Positions 1 through 12,327 are shown, counted from the stretch's first letter. The stretch is DNA of 64,000 bases from a virus (IMGVR_UViG_3300048998_000202); one strand, 5' to 3'. Notes: generated from the letters alone by a model not told the origin. Numbers and translations: made by a program.

Positions 1-116
1 CCACCCGGAGGTGATCCCCTTCTCCCTGCCGTGCCTTACCCGGCCCTGCCTAGCCATGCCACACCGCACCACGCCCCGCAGGTCTTGACGTTATCAAGAC
101 CCTTCGGAGCCGTCAA
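1..116 (-). ncRNA. GGY-NN pentamer guide-like RNA unit A with own promoter (3' end runs off the window)
   Basis: Minus strand: TTGACG-17 nt-TAACGT, then caagacc-tgcGG and 10 perfect GGY-NN pentamers (ggcgt ggtgc ggtgt ggcat ggcta ggcag ggccg ggtaa ggcac ggcag), then the start of a GC hairpin. Confidence 0.8.
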
Positions 117-120
117 TGAC

Positions 121-248
121 GAAGGGGCCCTCCGTAGAGGACCCCTTCTCCTATGCCAAACCTAGCCATACCCTACCCTGCCACGCCAAACCTAGCCAAG
201 CCATGCCCTGCAAGACTTGACTCTGTCAGCTCCTACGGCATCTGTCAA
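121..248 (-). ncRNA. GGY-NN pentamer guide-like RNA unit B
   Basis: TTGACA-17 nt-CAGAGT promoter, leader caagtcttgcAG, 11 perfect GGY-NN pentamers (207-153) and terminator hairpin GAAGGGGTCCTC-tacg-GAGGGCCCCTTC. Confidence 0.82.
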
Positions 249-4855: not shown

Positions 4856-5077
4856 ATGCAGACAGACACCCCCACCGACGACCTGAAGCTGTACGGGATC
4901 TCCGAGCTGGCGGATCGCTGGAAGGTCTCTAAGCAGCGGGCTGACGAGATCGCCTCCAAGCGCCTCCCACAGCCCCTCACGCTCAAGATGGGCCGCATCT
5001 GGACAGAACTCCAGGTGGAGAACTTCGAGAGAGGGTGGGTCCGTAAGACGGGGCGTCACATCGTCCCCAGGACTTGA
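4856..5077 (+). CDS. small AlpA/excisionase-like HTH DNA-binding protein
   Basis: LYGISELADRWKVSKQRADEI...LPQP..LKMGRIW is an AlpA-like wHTH pattern. Start could be 4838. Lies directly upstream of the RNA array. Confidence 0.7.
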   Translation: MQTDTPTDDLKLYGISELADRWKVSKQRADEIASKRLPQPLTLKMGRIWTELQVENFERGWVRKTGRHIVPRT

Positions 5078-5163
5078 TATCGTCAGGGGTTACTGGGCTC
5101 GGCAGGGCTAGGTAGGGCAGGACTGGGCACGGCATGGGAGGGGCTTCCTACGGGGAGCCCCTC
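5075..5163 (+). ncRNA. GGY-NN guide-like RNA unit D
   Basis: TGATATCGTCA box, pentamers 5096-5135 (one variant gactg) and hairpin GAGGGGCTTCC-tacg-GGGAGCCCCTC. Confidence 0.75.
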
Positions 5164-5168
5164 AGCCG

Positions 5169-5262
5169 TTGACAGGCGCTCTTGGGAGTGACAGAGTCAG
5201 GTCTTGCAGGACCACACGTGGGCGTGTGGAGAAGGGGCGCTTCTTCCAGGAGGCGCCCCTTC
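5169..5262 (+). ncRNA. array unit E: same promoter/leader but hairpin body instead of pentamers
   Basis: TTGACA-17-CAGAGT, caggtcttgcag, hairpin CCACACG-tggg-CGTGTGG and terminator GAAGGGGCGC..GCGCCCCTTC. Confidence 0.6.
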
Positions 5263-5267
5263 GTCGT

Positions 5268-5422
5268 TTGACAGACCGGCACGGGGGTGACAAAGTCAGG
5301 TCTTGCATGATGGGAAGGACACACGGTTGGTTTCTGAGGCCGGAACCGTGTGGATGCGATCGGCCCTCAAGGCCGTGGACGCGTCCGAAGGCCCCCTCTG
5401 AAGATTCCTGGAGGGGGCCTTC
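5268..5422 (+). ncRNA. array unit F: same promoter/leader, two-hairpin structured RNA
   Basis: TTGACA-17-CAAAGT, caggtcttgca, stems CACACGGTT/AACCGTGTG and GGATGCG..CGGCC/GGCCG..CGCGTCC, then terminator GAAGGCCCCCTC/GAGGGGGCCTTC. Confidence 0.6.
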
Positions 5423-5428
5423 GTTCGT

Positions 5429-5557
5429 TTGACCGGACGACATTAGGGCTGACAGGGTCAGTTCTTACAGGGCACCGTCTGGTTGGGCACGGTAAGGCAT
5501 GGTGGGGTAAGGCACGGCTGGGCAGGGGAGGGCGACCATCTTCGGATGGTCGCCCTC
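5429..5557 (+). ncRNA. GGY-NN guide-like RNA unit G
   Basis: TTGACC-18-CAGGGT, 11 pentamers at 5471-5525 (one variant cgtct) and a UUCG-capped terminator. Confidence 0.8.
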
Positions 5558-5563
5558 AGCCGT

Positions 5564-5706
5564 TTGACAGGTGCGGGTGGAGCTGACAGAGTCAAGTCTT
5601 GCAGGGCCGGGCCCGGTAGGGCGTGGTTTGGCGTGGTGTGGTTGGGCAACGCATGGCATGGCATGGCAGGGGAAAGGCCCCAGGATTTTAAAATCCTGGG
5701 GCCTTT
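5564..5706 (+). ncRNA. GGY-NN guide-like RNA unit H
   Basis: TTGACA-17-CAGAGT, 13 pentamers at 5605-5669 (one variant cgcat) and terminator GAAAGGCCCCAGGATTTTAAAATCCTGGGGCCTTTC. Confidence 0.8.
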
Positions 5707-5708
5707 CG

Positions 5709-5841
5709 TTACGCCCTGAAGGAACTGATAGAGTCATGGTCTCGGCAGGCCGAGGCTAGGTAAGGCACGGCGGGGCAAGGCACCGCCCGGTAGGGCAAGG
5801 CATGGGGAAGGCCCCCTCGGATTCTCCCGAGGGGGCCTTCC
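5709..5841 (+). ncRNA. GGY-NN guide-like RNA unit I (decodes to major capsid gene motif)
   Basis: TGATAGAGTCA box, 12 pentamers at 5744-5803 (variants gccga, cgccc) and a terminator convergent with the capsid gene. Confidence 0.82.
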
Positions 5842-5866: not shown

Positions 5867-6856
5867 TCACGCCTTGGTGATCGTCGCGATGCCCCTGGGG
5901 TTCAAAATGGACATATTGACCATTTCGTCAAATACCCATCCCTTCCAGAAGGCTTCGACCATGTGGTTCTCTTCCACGTCCAAACTGTACAGAACGGGGA
6001 AAACGCCCAAGAAGTTGGGCTCCGGGGTGAGGAAGACCTTGCCCTGCGGGACGATGATCGACCGCTGGATCTGGAACTCGCCGAACGAGGTGATGGTCTC
6101 GCCCGCGACGACCCGGTCCTTGAAGGCCCAGCCCGTCTGGTTGATGTCCCACCGGTACAGGTCCCGGAAGTCGAACGGGTTGATCAGGATCCGCGCCGAC
6201 TGGAGCTCGTGCATGTCCGTCATGGCGACGGCCGAGTACAGCGAGCCCGGCGTCAGGTAGCCCGACGCCTCGGTGATGTTGTGGTTCGGGGTGACCGTGT
6301 GGTCCGGGCGGGTGGCGTAGTCCGTCAGCGCCGCCTGGAGCAGTACGAGCAGCCGGGTGTCCTCCTGCTTGAGGATCGCCTGCTTGGTCTCGTCCTGGGC
6401 CTGCTCGACTGCGTTGATACGCAGGTAGAACAGGTCCTCCTTGCGGATCGCGGGGCGCGAGGCGATACGGAAGAACCGCACCGGAACGCGCTTGCCCTCG
6501 AACGGAGTCACACGGACTTCGCCCTCGGTGCCGGACATGATGTACGCCTGGCCCAGGTCGTCCCACACGTCGTACTCGACGGGGGTACCCGGGGTGACCG
6601 GGTCCTCCACGAGCACGTTGCGGGTGATGCCCTGGTAGCGGAGCTTGAGCTGGATGGGACCGACCATCCCGACGCCCAGACGGCGGATGCCGCCGGTCTC
6701 GTCGGAGAGGATCAGCGCCATCTTCTTGACCTTCGCCTCATGCGTGAGAGGCGCGGCCTTCTCCCGGCGGGCGAGGATCGCGGAGGCGTAGTCGTCGGAC
6801 TTCTTGGCCACACGGCCACGGAGCGACGAGGTTGCGGCGAGAGTCTGAGTCGGCAT
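5867..6856 (-). CDS. major capsid protein (HK97 fold)
   Basis: 329 aa with capsid-like sequence (GPIQLKLRYQGITRNVLVED, QAILKQEDTRL, C-terminal ILNPRGIATI). Follows scaffold and decoration genes. Confidence 0.85.
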   Translation of the reverse strand: MPTQTLAATSSLRGRVAKKSDDYASAILARREKAAPLTHEAKVKKMALILSDETGGIRRLGVGMVGPIQLKLRYQGITRNVLVEDPVTPGTPVEYDVWDDLGQAYIMSGTEGEVRVTPFEGKRVPVRFFRIASRPAIRKEDLFYLRINAVEQAQDETKQAILKQEDTRLLVLLQAALTDYATRPDHTVTPNHNITEASGYLTPGSLYSAVAMTDMHELQSARILINPFDFRDLYRWDINQTGWAFKDRVVAGETITSFGEFQIQRSIIVPQGKVFLTPEPNFLGVFPVLYSLDVEENHMVEAFWKGWVFDEMVNMSILNPRGIATITKA

Positions 6857-8571: not shown

Positions 8572-11500
8572 TCAGACAGGCATCGGCAGCGGCGTTTCGC
8601 CCTGCTCTTCGGCGGGGCTCATGAGCTGCCCCTGACCACAGTTGGGGCAGACGTCGCCCGCCTGGACTCCGTCGGGGGTGGCCTCTCCCGTCGGCGGCAG
8701 GATCGAGGTGTCCATGTCGACGCTCACCGGGTTGGTGGCGTCGGCCTGGAATCCGCACGCCGGACATTCGAGGTCCGGTACGCCATCGCCGGGGGTACCG
8801 GGGACTCCCTGGCCCGCGTCCGGGTTGGGGATCTGTCCGTCGGTGTCCAGGTCCTGAGGTCCGGCCGGGCCCTCGGGACCTGTCGGCTGGCCGGGTCCCT
8901 GGGGCGTGTCGGGCCCTGGGGTGAACGGCTGGCCGTCACTGCTGACCGCGTCGGCCGGGAGGGCCTGCGGTCCGATCGGCATTCCGTCGGGTCCGACCAT
9001 CATCTGCTGGCCGGGCTGCTGGAGCGGCTGTCCGTCGGGTCCGAGCATGGCCGGGTCGACTGGTGCCCCCAGCTCGTTCGGATCCTGCGGCTGGCCGTCC
9101 GGGCCGAGCGCGTTGGGATCCTGGGGCGAGTCTCCGCCCATCGGGTCGCCGCCCGGCTGTACCTCGGCCTGTACTTCACCGGGGAGTGTGCCGGGCTGCT
9201 GACCCTGGTCCGCAGCGTCGGGGTTGACGGGGTTGCCGTTCTCGTCCAGGGCCGCCGGGTCGGCCGGGTTTTCGACCGGCTGTCCGTCAGGTCCGATCTG
9301 ATTGGGGTTGGCCGGATCCTGGAACTCTGCGACGTCCTTCCGCAGGTCCATCTGTCGGGCCTTCTCCAGGTCGGGGTCCTGGAACATCTTGGGGGGTGCG
9401 ACGTAGCTGCACACCTGGCAGGTGGCGCCGTCGAAGGTGTCGCGGTCACCGCACACCGGGCAGGCGTCCTCGCGCAGGGTGTCCACGTCCTCGGGGGCCT
9501 TCGTCTCGCCGTAGGCCAGTTTGCGGCCCAGCAGGCGACGAGAATCCTCGGGGGGAGTAGCCCCCCGGCCCGTCTGGAGACCCTTGCCGTTCTCGGTGGC
9601 GAACGGGGAGTGCACCGGGGCTGGGTCGTAATGGGCCGCAGCGTGATCCAGCATGGCGGAGGCCACTCCTCGTCGCTTGAGGTTGTCGTCCACACCGATC
9701 CAGTTGATATGGCCAGCGGGCTTGACGTGCCAGGAGTCCGCGTGGCCATTCATGCCGCAGTGGTCGCAGTGCTGATCGGGCCGGAAGTCGTCAGGTCCCT
9801 TCTCGTCCCAGTACTCCTCGCGCTTCTTGGTCCACTCCAGCTTCCCGACCTGCTGCCTGTCGGGAGTGTGGGCGCGCAGCACGTGGTACTTGTAGTCCGG
9901 TCCACCGTGGTACGTGAAGTGCAGGCCCTCCGGCAGATCACCACTGGCCCCGGCCACATGGGAGTTCGCCGGGGGCTGGTGCAGGTCCGGATTGTGCTCG
10001 CGGCTGAGGTCCTGCCAGGTCTTGCGCTGGTTGCGCTGCACGGTGTTGCGGCCCTTCTGACCGCCTGAGGTGTCACCCTCGGCGTTCAGGCGCTGCCGGG
10101 CGAGCCAGGTGACGGCCTGCACCTCGTGCGGGGGCACTTCGCGGCCCTCACGGTCGGAGATGACCGCTGCGGCCTTGCGGTAGTGGTTGGCCACGACCTC
10201 GTAGTGCTTGCGGTTCTGCGAAGGGAAGCCCTTGACGTCGTCGGCGTTCAGACGGCGCCCGGCGGCGACGGACAGGGCATGACGATCCACGACGACCTTG
10301 TCCGAAGGCTCCTTGGGCTTTCCTGCCGCCGCGTCCTCAGGGCTCTGGGGCTTGTTACCGCCGTGCTCGATCAGGGAGGCGAAGTCCTGCGTCTTGGGCC
10401 CCTTGAGGGCTTCCTGGTGGTTCATGCCGTCCATGACCTTCTGGGCGGCGTTGGCGTGACTGCCCATCACCATGATGCCCTCGCCCTTGCCGACGGCCCG
10501 CTGCTCGTGGAAGGCCCGCGCGGCGTTGTGCTGGTTGGCCCACCAGCCCTGCTGCGGGGAGTAGGCGGAGAGGACGCCTGCGCCCTTGTGGGCGGCTTCG
10601 GCGTCGCTCTTGATGCGGGGATCCAGTTTGGCGATGGACTTGGCCACCAGGTGGGCGTCGGGGTACCAGCGTTTGCCCTGCGCCTTCTCCTCGCTGGTGG
10701 CCTGGTCCCAGTGGTCCACGACGTGGTGGTGGGACAGGCCCATCTCCTTGAACCACGGATGGTCCTCGGGTGGCGTGGCCGCCGCACCCTCGGCCATCAG
10801 ATCGGCCAGGGTGACGCGGGAGCCGGTGGCGGCAATCTGCCTCACCACGGAGTCCGGGATCTCCTCCGGAGTGGGGTACGACTTCGAACGCGCCCTGTGG
10901 GTGGTGACGAAGTGGCCGTCACCGTCCTGCTTGAGACCGACCTCGGCGAAACGCGGGTCCTTCTTGGCGGCCTCGAACATCCGGTCCTGGGCGTACCCGG
11001 AGCCCTCGGGAGTCTTCCCGGGGTCTTTGGCCTTGGGCGGCCAGTTGGTGGCGCGTGCCCCGTGATAGGGAGCCTTCTCGCCGTATTCATCCGGGGTGTC
11101 GGAGAGGGGGGACTTCGCCACGTAGGCGTGGATCTTCTTGATCCCTGCGGCCTTGGCCGCCTCGGTCCGGTGGTGGCCGTCGGCGACCTGGAAGACGCCG
11201 TGCCGGTGTACGAGGACGACCGGTGGCATCTGCTCGGGGTTGTCCCGGTACCCCTCGGCAGCGTGCTGGACGCGGTAGTCACCGGCCTCGTGGCGCTTGT
11301 GGTCGATGGCGCTCGGGCTGACCATCGCGTGATGGAAGGTCAGGTCATCGATCGAACGCTCGTTGGCGTCAGGGTCGTCGGGGGTGGAGTGGGCCAAGTT
11401 GCTGGCTGCCCATCCGATCATCTCCCCGTCGGCGTGCTCGGCCCGATCGCCGTGGATCTCGGGGTCCCCGTAGATCTCCGGGTGCCGCTCGCCTACCTCG

Positions 11501-12327
11501 TCCCAGGACAGGCCCCGCCCGGCAGTGGTGTTGATGGAGTCAAGACTTGCGGTACTCTGGATCTCGCTCGGCTCGGCTCGGATTGGCTTGGTTGGGCTTG
11601 GCACGGCAAGGTACGGCATGGCATGGGTGGCGGTCTCTCCGGAGGCCGCCACAGCCATTTTCATACCCCGGTCATCGATCCCGGTGAAAAACGCCGTCGG
11701 ATCCGCCGGGGGCTCCACCAGCAGCGAGTTCTCGAAAAACCGCAATCCGTAGCAGGTCTCACGGATGATCTCGCCGATCTTCTGCCCGGAAGCCGTCGTC
11801 CGGTAAAGCGTCATTCCCTTTGATCCAGGGATGTGGGCGCAGTATTCGGCAGGGGTAGTGGCCTTGTTGCCACAGGCGGAGCAGACGGAGAAGGCGACGT
11901 CGGTGCCCATGCTGGTTCTGGCGATGTTGCCGTTCATGATCTCGGCGGCCAGCTTGGGAAAGCGCAGCGCATCGACCTCTTGGAGGACCTCGACCCACCA
12001 GTCCCGGCTGCCGTCGCGGTTGCTGTCCTTGTGCAAAACCGCGTCGATGATCACACCACGGGCGCGCTTGTGATCTTCGTTCGCGTGATTGACGAAGACG
12101 GGCTTACCGATAAACGTCCGGTATCCCTTCTCCAGTTCCTCAGCGGGGAACTCGTCGAAGTTGTCGTTGCACCGGCTGGAGATGGCGCGGGAGCGCACGT
12201 ACAGGTAGCCGGGGCGCACCTCATACGAAAAGTGGTGCCGGTGGGCGAAGCGGCGCAGCTCACGGGCACCCGCGTCCGTGGGGACGAGGGCCTTGGTCAT
12301 GATCTGGGCGCTCGCGTACTTGAGCAT
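8572..12327 (-). CDS. multidomain head protein: prohead protease-like N-terminus + ParB/Srx-like + HhH-glycosylase-like + GNAT + Zn ribbons
   Basis: N-terminal GKPVFVNH..ARGVIIDA..TSMG..CSACGN..YCAHI..FFENSLLVEPPADPTA. ParB-like MPPVVLV..ADGHHR. WY..SAYSPQ..GPK..VVVDRHA..VQAVTW. GNAT RRGVASAML. Several CxxC pairs. Confidence 0.7.
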   Translation of the reverse strand: MLKYASAQIMTKALVPTDAGARELRRFAHRHHFSYEVRPGYLYVRSRAISSRCNDNFDEFPAEELEKGYRTFIGKPVFVNHANEDHKRARGVIIDAVLHKDSNRDGSRDWWVEVLQEVDALRFPKLAAEIMNGNIARTSMGTDVAFSVCSACGNKATTPAEYCAHIPGSKGMTLYRTTASGQKIGEIIRETCYGLRFFENSLLVEPPADPTAFFTGIDDRGMKMAVAASGETATHAMPYLAVPSPTKPIRAEPSEIQSTASLDSINTTAGRGLSWDEVGERHPEIYGDPEIHGDRAEHADGEMIGWAASNLAHSTPDDPDANERSIDDLTFHHAMVSPSAIDHKRHEAGDYRVQHAAEGYRDNPEQMPPVVLVHRHGVFQVADGHHRTEAAKAAGIKKIHAYVAKSPLSDTPDEYGEKAPYHGARATNWPPKAKDPGKTPEGSGYAQDRMFEAAKKDPRFAEVGLKQDGDGHFVTTHRARSKSYPTPEEIPDSVVRQIAATGSRVTLADLMAEGAAATPPEDHPWFKEMGLSHHHVVDHWDQATSEEKAQGKRWYPDAHLVAKSIAKLDPRIKSDAEAAHKGAGVLSAYSPQQGWWANQHNAARAFHEQRAVGKGEGIMVMGSHANAAQKVMDGMNHQEALKGPKTQDFASLIEHGGNKPQSPEDAAAGKPKEPSDKVVVDRHALSVAAGRRLNADDVKGFPSQNRKHYEVVANHYRKAAAVISDREGREVPPHEVQAVTWLARQRLNAEGDTSGGQKGRNTVQRNQRKTWQDLSREHNPDLHQPPANSHVAGASGDLPEGLHFTYHGGPDYKYHVLRAHTPDRQQVGKLEWTKKREEYWDEKGPDDFRPDQHCDHCGMNGHADSWHVKPAGHINWIGVDDNLKRRGVASAMLDHAAAHYDPAPVHSPFATENGKGLQTGRGATPPEDSRRLLGRKLAYGETKAPEDVDTLREDACPVCGDRDTFDGATCQVCSYVAPPKMFQDPDLEKARQMDLRKDVAEFQDPANPNQIGPDGQPVENPADPAALDENGNPVNPDAADQGQQPGTLPGEVQAEVQPGGDPMGGDSPQDPNALGPDGQPQDPNELGAPVDPAMLGPDGQPLQQPGQQMMVGPDGMPIGPQALPADAVSSDGQPFTPGPDTPQGPGQPTGPEGPAGPQDLDTDGQIPNPDAGQGVPGTPGDGVPDLECPACGFQADATNPVSVDMDTSILPPTGEATPDGVQAGDVCPNCGQGQLMSPAEEQGETPLPMPV
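11532..11652 (+). ncRNA. GGY-NN guide-like RNA unit J, antisense inside the protease gene
   Basis: TGATGGAGTCA box, leader caagacttgcgg, pentamers at 11570-11624 (one variant ggatt) and terminator GTGGCGGTCTC-tccg-GAGGCCGCCAC. Confidence 0.78.

Follow-up and report, generated by a model that had tools for sequence, protein, structure and literature searches.

A putative VIPR guide RNA of an uncultivated phage matches a conserved motif of DruE-like defence helicases

Introduction

VIPR (Viral Interference Programmable Repeat) systems, CRISPR-related silencers of genes that were described in 2026, are the closest described counterparts of the locus analysed here. Vipr, a small RAMP protein, polymerises along a vrRNA of 9–16 YNNGG repeats, burying GGY and exposing the two remaining bases (NN), which pair with double-stranded DNA such that one target base, mostly the wobble position of a codon, is skipped between pairs (10.64898/2026.04.26.720920, 10.64898/2026.04.26.720927, 10.64898/2026.10.15.759431). 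Either strand is described as targetable, a PAM as unnecessary, and transcriptional repression as the outcome, and the natural targets, called at an NN match of at least 80%, are satellites, prophages, and other VIPR systems (10.64898/2026.04.26.720920, 10.64898/2026.04.26.720927, 10.64898/2026.10.15.759431). The best-characterised VIPRs are of type II and come from a prophage of Pseudomonas fulva and from Escherichia phage SUSP1; with the SUSP1 complex, DNA unwinding begins at the 3′ end of the vrRNA and runs 3′ to 5′ (10.64898/2026.04.26.720920, 10.64898/2026.04.26.720927, 10.64898/2026.10.15.759431).

Several anti-phage systems also bear on the locus. Druantia DruE is a very large SF2 helicase with DEAD, Helicase_C, and MZB/DUF1998 domains, and its operon partners differ by type: DruA-D in type I, DruM/F/G in type II, and DruH in type III. 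The core of DISARM consists of the helicase DrmA, DrmB (DUF1998), and DrmC (PLD), to which class 1 adds DrmD (SNF2) and DrmMI. Type ISP restriction-modification enzymes unite an Mrr-like nuclease, an SF2 helicase, a coupler, an N6-methyltransferase, and a specificity domain in a single polypeptide. On the phage side, Seed et al. reportedly described in 2013 a CRISPR-Cas system of Vibrio phage ICP1 that is directed against the PLE anti-phage island.

Here, we describe guide B, a pentamer-repeat element near the left end of a 64,000-nucleotide stretch of an uncultivated viral genome (IMGVR_UViG_3300048998_000202; this whole stretch is referred to below as the window), and the family of bacterial helicase genes that its exposed dinucleotides match.

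Results

Anatomy of the guide B cassette

Guide B lies on the minus strand at 153–212 and consists of a leader unit, TGCAG (208–212, minus strand), followed by a body of eleven GGYNN pentamers (153–207, minus strand), so that the minus strand read from 212 to 153 is TGCAG GGCAT GGCTT GGCTA GGTTT GGCGT GGCAG GGTAG GGTAT GGCTA GGTTT GGCAT. The AG of the leader is the first NN and completes a CAGGG repeat in the YNNGG register, and the full NN series is AG AT TT TA TT GT AG AG AT TA TT AT, the last eleven dinucleotides being those of the pentamers; the first-pass annotation had listed the full series identically, base for base. A run of eleven GGY units without a single flaw cannot be chance. In the YNNGG register, which the VIPR authors use, the last unit (CATAG) is imperfect.

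Upstream of the guide, a −35-like hexamer, TTGACA, is legible at 243–248 (minus strand) and is followed after 17 nt by a −10-like hexamer, CAGAGT (220–225, minus strand), within a conserved box, GACAGAGTCAAGTCTTGCAG, whose conservation suggests a promoter role. This box is found in exact form before guides B and H and before the fourth left-hand cassette (contig L001), with variants of it before the other units, and a TTGAC(A/G/C) box stands at matching spacing upstream of most cassettes, the exceptions being C and I. Downstream, the 3′ tail (118–152, minus strand) begins with AGGA and continues into a hairpin with a 12-bp GC-rich core stem at 148–121, as indicated by RNA folding and by its recurrence across cassettes; the region of the predicted transcript (214–108) folds at −44.3 kcal/mol (z = −2.75). 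The hairpin probably serves as both vrRNA tail and terminator. Simple scanners applied to positions 1–420 called neither a sigma-70 promoter nor a terminator for guide B, the latter because the hairpin is without a T-run, and both elements are therefore proposed from their recurrence among the cassettes. The expected RNA would be ∼100 nt long, with a leader of ∼5 nt, 12 YNNGG/GGYNN repeats, and the hairpin tail.

Guide B also contains an internal 30-nt near-duplication at 155–211 (TRF period 30, 1.9 copies, 85% match), through which units 7–12 (AG AG AT TA TT AT) resemble units 1–6 (AG AT TT TA TT GT); the resemblance may record guide birth by duplication, or be chance. Other readings of the pentamers were considered as well. 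A sponge RNA wrapping a TRAP-like ring protein, with the NN positions as mere spacers, was dropped in light of the VIPR literature, and small-peptide coding or G-quadruplex formation was considered from the sequence alone; TAG and TAA are frequent in the pentamers.

Relationship to VIPR systems

Judged by its sequence features, the element at 153–212 is the guide part of a VIPR vrRNA. Like the SUSP1 and P. fulva VIPRs, it would give a phage-borne transcript of ∼100 nt with a number of GGY/NN repeats between 9 and 16, here eleven perfect GGY units plus the leader unit, and a structured 3′ tail; this tail is a plain GC-rich hairpin, whereas that of the SUSP1 clade is a pseudoknot. In both cases, NN would carry the specificity under a one-base-skip rule aligned to the codon wobble position, and the array is apparently adjoined by a small vipr gene together with an accessory gene.

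The evidence for adjoining genes comes from related loci and from a second assembly of the same phage. Eight consecutive units, (GGYNN)x8, occur in at least 120 uncultivated viral contigs, most of which carry several arrays, and one family of ∼200-aa proteins adjoins the arrays in 83 of the 120 array-bearing contigs fetched. A profile built from 30 of these proteins matches PDB entry 36PP, “SUSP1 Vipr protein” (E 1e-37). A profile search with other Vipr proteins gave 3645 matches, and the 120 of these listed belong to another clade. The vipr gene of the present phage is placed to the left of the window, outside it: on a 9.2-kb Logan contig from this phage, co-oriented genes for 192-aa and 196-aa proteins directly follow the left array. 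To judge from the gene table, they are apparently of the size and in the position expected for vipr and vap.

Among the 120 IMG/VR loci (L002–L121), some arrays are laid out as spaced cassettes and others as runs of up to 142 pentamers (L019), and a second small-protein family, probably one of the vap accessory families, adjoins the arrays in 27. Proteins of 178 aa and 206 aa that adjoin the right-hand array of the window gave no PDB sequence match.

Source phage and other cassettes of the window

The window has a composition of 66% G+C and encodes an fn3 tail-type protein and a cement protein, and its only Rfam matches are three tRNAs. Its major capsid protein shares ∼60% identity with the corresponding proteins of Mycobacterium phage Myrna, Rhodococcus phage Finch, and Gordonia phage Skog, and because of this kinship the host is probably a member of the Mycobacteriales, with Mycobacteriaceae as the likely family; the source phage is probably an uncultivated myovirus of this order and a relative of Myrna, Finch, and Skog. 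GGYNN arrays are absent from these three cultured relatives, no near match to the window was found among deposited phages, and the cassette leader had no match in IMG/VR or in metagenome contigs.

Eight pentamer units, all with distinct NN series, are present in the window. Guides A, B, and C lie on the minus strand within 26–340, where guide A (26–80) has a leader, TGCGG, and 10 pentamers, and guide C occupies 286–340; a fourth left-hand cassette lies just past the window edge on a metagenome contig (L001) identical to the left end. The plus strand holds four units at 5096–5803 and one at 11570–11624. The former belong to a right-hand array of common cassette design (5070–5830, plus strand) that contains four pentamer cassettes and two non-pentamer bodies, and the latter is the isolated guide J, located by the pentamer scan (11565–11624, plus strand). 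A similar GC-rich hairpin closes every cassette in the window, and the final unit of every guide is AT or AG.

The two non-pentamer cassettes of the right-hand array (5160–5440, plus strand) share the promoter box, the leader (GACAGAGTCAGGTCTTGCAG and GACAAAGTCAGGTCTTGCAT), and the terminal hairpin, and have as bodies a short hairpin in one and ∼100 nt in the other; from their layout they look like other small RNAs under the same type of promoter. Guide I (5739–5803, plus strand) matches DNA of its own phage at ∼5979 (5979–6016, plus strand), in the region of the major capsid gene; 20 of 26 NN bases match, the best of 200 shuffled guides reaching 19. The guide J cassette (11532–11652, plus strand) lies antisense inside a 1251-aa stop-to-stop ORF (8572–12327, minus strand), which probably represents two genes that flank the vrRNA cassette. 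Guide A has a tail (window 1–25; L001 1757–1790) that contains GGAGAAGGGGATCACCTCC, within which GATCACCTCC is identical to the anti-Shine-Dalgarno region at the 16S rRNA 3′ end; here, it is probably just one arm of the hairpin.

Guide B decodes to a helicase motif

The reverse complement of the guide B NN series, with one base skipped between dinucleotides, is AT.AA.TA.AT.CT.CT.AC.AA.TA.AA.AT.CT, which translates as (I/M)(K/N)Y(I/M)LLT(K/N)Y(K/N)(I/M)L; the nine 5′-proximal units give AT.CT.CT.AC.AA.TA.AA.AT.CT, or ILLTNYKML. The first-pass annotation had proposed both this decoding and a gapped two-base code, the latter being the published one-base-skip rule of VIPR. The nine-unit pattern, one of 16^9 possible, had at least 120 matches among ∼185,000 prokaryotic species represented by one genome each. 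In 117 of the 120 matches listed, it was in frame in giant ORFs bearing (P/A)PDILLTNYKMLD(Y/Q/H/L/F/M)LL, with 18 of 18 bases matching over nine contiguous, wobble-aligned units. The search that the annotation had suggested as a check thus returned matches that were neither out of frame nor scattered over unrelated families, and the decoding as ILLTNYKML stands. Where the fetched 8-kb locus spans the whole gene, the target ORFs are ∼2000–2200 aa long. The matches span many phyla, and among those listed many are from Actinomycetota, including Mycolicibacterium, Rhodococcus, Nocardia, Tsukamurella, Corynebacterium, and Streptomyces.

Within the match, the leader AG and the first eight pentamers are complementary to codon positions 1 and 2 of ILLTNYKML, the leader AG pairing with the CT of the final Leu codon in all 117 family matches; this ninth matched unit, TGCAG, departs from the canonical GGY form and is at most ∼5 nt from where the RNA is predicted to start. 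Units 10–12 (TA TT AT), at the 3′ end of the vrRNA, where SUSP1 unwinding starts, mismatch the target. No family member extends the match, because PPD or APD almost always precedes the motif. The loss of fit at the 3′ end, also remarked upon in the annotation, is thus real: overall, 19 of 24 NN bases match (79%), just below the cut-off of at least 80% applied by the VIPR authors, and the match is 19 of 22 (86%) without the imperfect last unit.

In viral contigs, the nine-unit pattern gave 30 matches, three of them in frame in large ORFs with PDILLTNYKMLD and the remainder AT-rich non-coding noise; the motif-bearing gene also occurs on viral or proviral contigs (L130, L132, L136). The other nine-unit window of guide B, at its 3′ end, gave 14 viral matches, which were AT-rich with in-frame stops and had no common family. 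No self-target of guide B was found in the window, the best site matching at 14 of 24 NN bases, below the mean of shuffled guides, and the guide B sequence was not found elsewhere in viral and metagenome contigs. None of ∼480 guides from other VIPR loci matched the DruE-like helicase family, and guides A, C, D, G, H, I, and J gave nothing above the shuffled-guide null against the helicase islands.

The target helicase, its distribution, and its genomic context

Four full-length target proteins (2123–2204 aa) were scanned, and all contained DEAD, Helicase_C, and MZB (PF09369, formerly DUF1998) domains, with best PADLOC matches to the Druantia DruE3 and DruE1 models (E 1e-74 to 1e-88 over both models, the top match of each protein lying between 1e-82 and 1e-88); a match to DrmA was far weaker (E 1e-19). 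These assignments agree with the first-pass annotation, in which PDILLTNYxML was given as a conserved motif of large DUF1998/DruE-like helicases. ILLTNYKML lies near residue 210 of the ∼2100-aa helicase and is nearly invariant.

The exact guide B site was present in 15 of 401 Mycobacteriales genomes, once per genome, the reversed-pattern control giving 0, and in 16 of 151 Mycobacteriaceae genomes. Allowing up to two mismatches, 29 of the 151 Mycobacteriaceae genomes carried a site, and the reversed pattern gave a single match. One-mismatch sites in Mycobacteriaceae encode LLLTNYKML or use a TTG Leu codon, and most two-mismatch sites belong to a paralogue with ILLTNY[A/V/R]ML, two bases off guide B, which in nine genomes lies on the same contig 12–15 kb from the better site (G430:C14, G467:C1, G482:C2, G500:C1, G428:C1, G480:C3, G501:C10, G521:C12, and G458:C87). 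Cultured strains with an exact site include Rhodococcus rhodnii NBRC 100604, Nocardia asiatica NBRC 100129, Tsukamurella asaccharolytica HKU71, and Corynebacterium variabile NBRC 15286.

Genomic context was assessed in 20-kb stretches around eight sites, with neighbouring genes scanned in three (L272, L274, L275). In the scanned islands, the operon order is a DrmD-like SNF2 gene (E 1e-88 to 1e-94), a gene for a DrmMI-like or Type IIG-like methyltransferase of ∼1550 aa, and then the target helicase; a UvrD-like or GajB-like helicase also scored among the neighbours, the target helicase being followed by a UvrD-like helicase in L272 and by a gene of similar size in L278. The partners DruA-D, DruH, and DruM/F/G were not seen in these three islands, and a PLD-type DrmC was not identified in them. 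The target thus resembles Druantia DruE in size and domain content but stands in an island without the Druantia operon partners, and the island resembles DISARM in that neighbours score as DrmD and DrmMI but differs from it in that a single polypeptide carries both the helicase and the DUF1998 part. On gene content, the target locus is a defence island with a DruE-like helicase in a DISARM-like neighbourhood, canonical for neither system.

Guides A and C

The eight 5′ units of the adjacent guide A decode to CG.CT.TA.AT.AC.GC.AC.CC, or RLYMTATP. In viral contigs, 68 of 70 matches to this pattern were in frame, nearly all in long ORFs (up to ∼1800 aa), and most read (K/R)RLYMTATP(R/K). Two of the target proteins were scanned; Mrr_cat_2, ResIII, ISP_coupler, and Type_ISP_C domains were found, together with N6_Mtase in one, and both proteins scored ∼2280–2300 bits against the PADLOC model REase_MTase_IIG. 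By this domain content, the guide A targets tested have the architecture of Type ISP restriction-modification enzymes, to which the family is assigned. RLYMTATP corresponds to helicase motif III of Type ISP enzymes. The exact guide A site was present in 18 of 151 Mycobacteriaceae genomes (control 0), and in three genomes (G001, G422, G458) it occurs together with an exact guide B site. The two guides have a common layout, with the 5′ units matched (eight in A and nine in B) and the last three unmatched.

The eight-unit 5′ window of guide C gave 14 viral matches, AT-rich and without a coherent family. The first-pass annotation had taken two adjacent guides to spell helicase motifs, which holds for A and B, and had extended this to an anti-host-defence role for the left array as a whole; since guide C and the right-hand guides did not fit the islands of the A and B targets, that description is supported for two guides and not for the whole array.

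Discussion

Proposed role of guide B

The best explanation of these observations, to which we assign a probability of roughly 0.6, is that guide B is the guide of a vrRNA that silences a DruE-like helicase gene, as a form of programmable counter-defence. The phage probably employs guide B to switch off this defence gene, as inferred from the match and from the behaviour of characterised VIPRs; binding at the guide B site in vivo and a benefit to the phage would follow from the same reasoning. Filament assembly, the skip rule, and silencing are taken from the VIPR literature, and the cassette anatomy, the match, the identity, context, and distribution of the target, and the controls come from the present data.

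In outline, a dedicated promoter would drive minus-strand transcription of the guide B cassette, and the vrRNA would be coated by one Vipr protomer per repeat, with GGY buried and NN presented, by analogy with SUSP1 and P. fulva. On the coding strand of the helicase gene, the first nine NN units would then pair with positions 1 and 2 of the ILLTNYKML codons, the skipped base being the wobble position, and the Vipr-vrRNA filament would block RNA polymerase ∼640 bp into the gene, preventing transcription of the helicase and of any downstream gene. We speculate that, with the block lying after the methyltransferase gene, the helicase would be turned off and protective methylation would continue. 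Helicase protein made before infection would survive such transcriptional silencing. Given the skipped wobble base and the near-invariance of the motif, a single guide would fit the gene across many species, and the skip would also leave synonymous mutations without effect as an escape from guide B.

Alternative explanations

The leading alternative, which we nevertheless regard as unlikely, is that the DruE-like island is carried by a competing mobile element, such as a prophage, an integrative element, or a satellite, and that guide B serves inter-element competition. The published natural targets of VIPR are satellites, prophages, and other VIPR systems, and guide B would differ in having a host-type anti-phage defence helicase as its target; the occurrence of the motif gene on the three viral or proviral contigs noted above, and its presence in only ∼4–11% of species genomes, as for mobile accessory DNA, also point in the direction of a mobile carrier. 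The target, however, is a defence-type helicase accompanied by a methyltransferase and an SNF2 protein and not a replication, regulatory, or structural gene, and silencing a mobile-borne defence gene would still be counter-defence from the phage's side. A somewhat less credible possibility is that the match is historical, in that guide B has decayed, its 3′ units no longer fit, and the complex cannot open the DNA. This would account for the confinement of all mismatches to the three 3′ units, where the SUSP1 VIPR is described as starting to unwind, and it agrees with the resemblance of units 10–12 (TA TT AT) to a diverged copy of units 4–6 (TA TT GT). Guide B does differ from characterised VIPRs in that only the 5′ nine of its twelve units match the target, but guide A has the same layout, with eight units matched and three unmatched at the 3′ end, which speaks for a trait of this VIPR clade and against the decay of a single guide. 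Moreover, nine matched units equal the shortest natural vrRNAs (9–16 repeats), and the last unit is probably structural, because it is AT or AG in every guide.

That the true target is unsampled and that guide B shares 18 gapped bases with the helicase motif by coincidence appears improbable. The full-length match does fall under the published 80% cut-off, the NN positions of guide B are AT-rich and include the internal near-duplication, and guide B alone among the window guides matches the helicase island. Against this, out of 16^9 patterns guide B lands in frame on the conserved motif of a single family in 117 of the 120 matches listed, the reversed-pattern controls yielded 0 in 401 genomes and one match in 151, and two other windows taken from real guides (the 3′ window of guide B and guide C) were without coherent matches; the adjacent guide A behaves alike on a second defence helicase, 5′-matched and 3′-unmatched. 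An action of the vrRNA on helicase mRNA instead of DNA, as an antisense RNA, is very unlikely and the least probable of the readings weighed here. It would be compatible with guides A and B both being complementary to the coding strand, and hence to mRNA, but characterised VIPR complexes bind double-stranded DNA and target and repress from either strand, and two of two guides in one orientation has a chance probability of 0.25.

Implications for counter-defence

Silencing of a host defence gene by guide B, the reading preferred here, would not add a new kind of element, VIPR being already known; what would be new is the target class inferred from the decoded guides, namely host defence helicases. 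Word searches of the discovery paper and the satellite-competition paper (10.64898/2026.04.26.720920 and 10.64898/2026.10.15.759431) gave no mention of Druantia, anti-defence, or counter-defence, and in neither are helicases or host defence named as something that a vrRNA targets.

The ICP1 system and the guide B system are alike in being phage-carried, RNA-guided, and aimed at a host-resident anti-phage element. They differ in that ICP1 uses a Type I-F CRISPR-Cas with contiguous spacers and spacer acquisition that destroys DNA, whereas guide B recognition is gapped and believed to be non-cutting, and in that ICP1 targets one particular island, whereas guide B would target a conserved protein-coding motif.

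The common layout of guides A and B provides a handle on which vrRNA repeats target recognition needs. More tentatively, and at slightly less than even odds in our estimation, the VIPR of this phage may be a programmable, broad-spectrum counter-defence system in which at least two guides are directed against invariant motifs of host immune helicases (DruE-/DISARM-like and Type ISP), the wobble skip would provide for many hosts and deny synonymous escape, and restriction would be turned off with methylation left on. If guides are indeed directed against conserved motifs of host defence helicases, they would represent a new class of counter-defence, RNA-guided silencing of immune genes, and the wobble-skipping code would serve breadth across hosts and not only the blocking of a single rival's escape.
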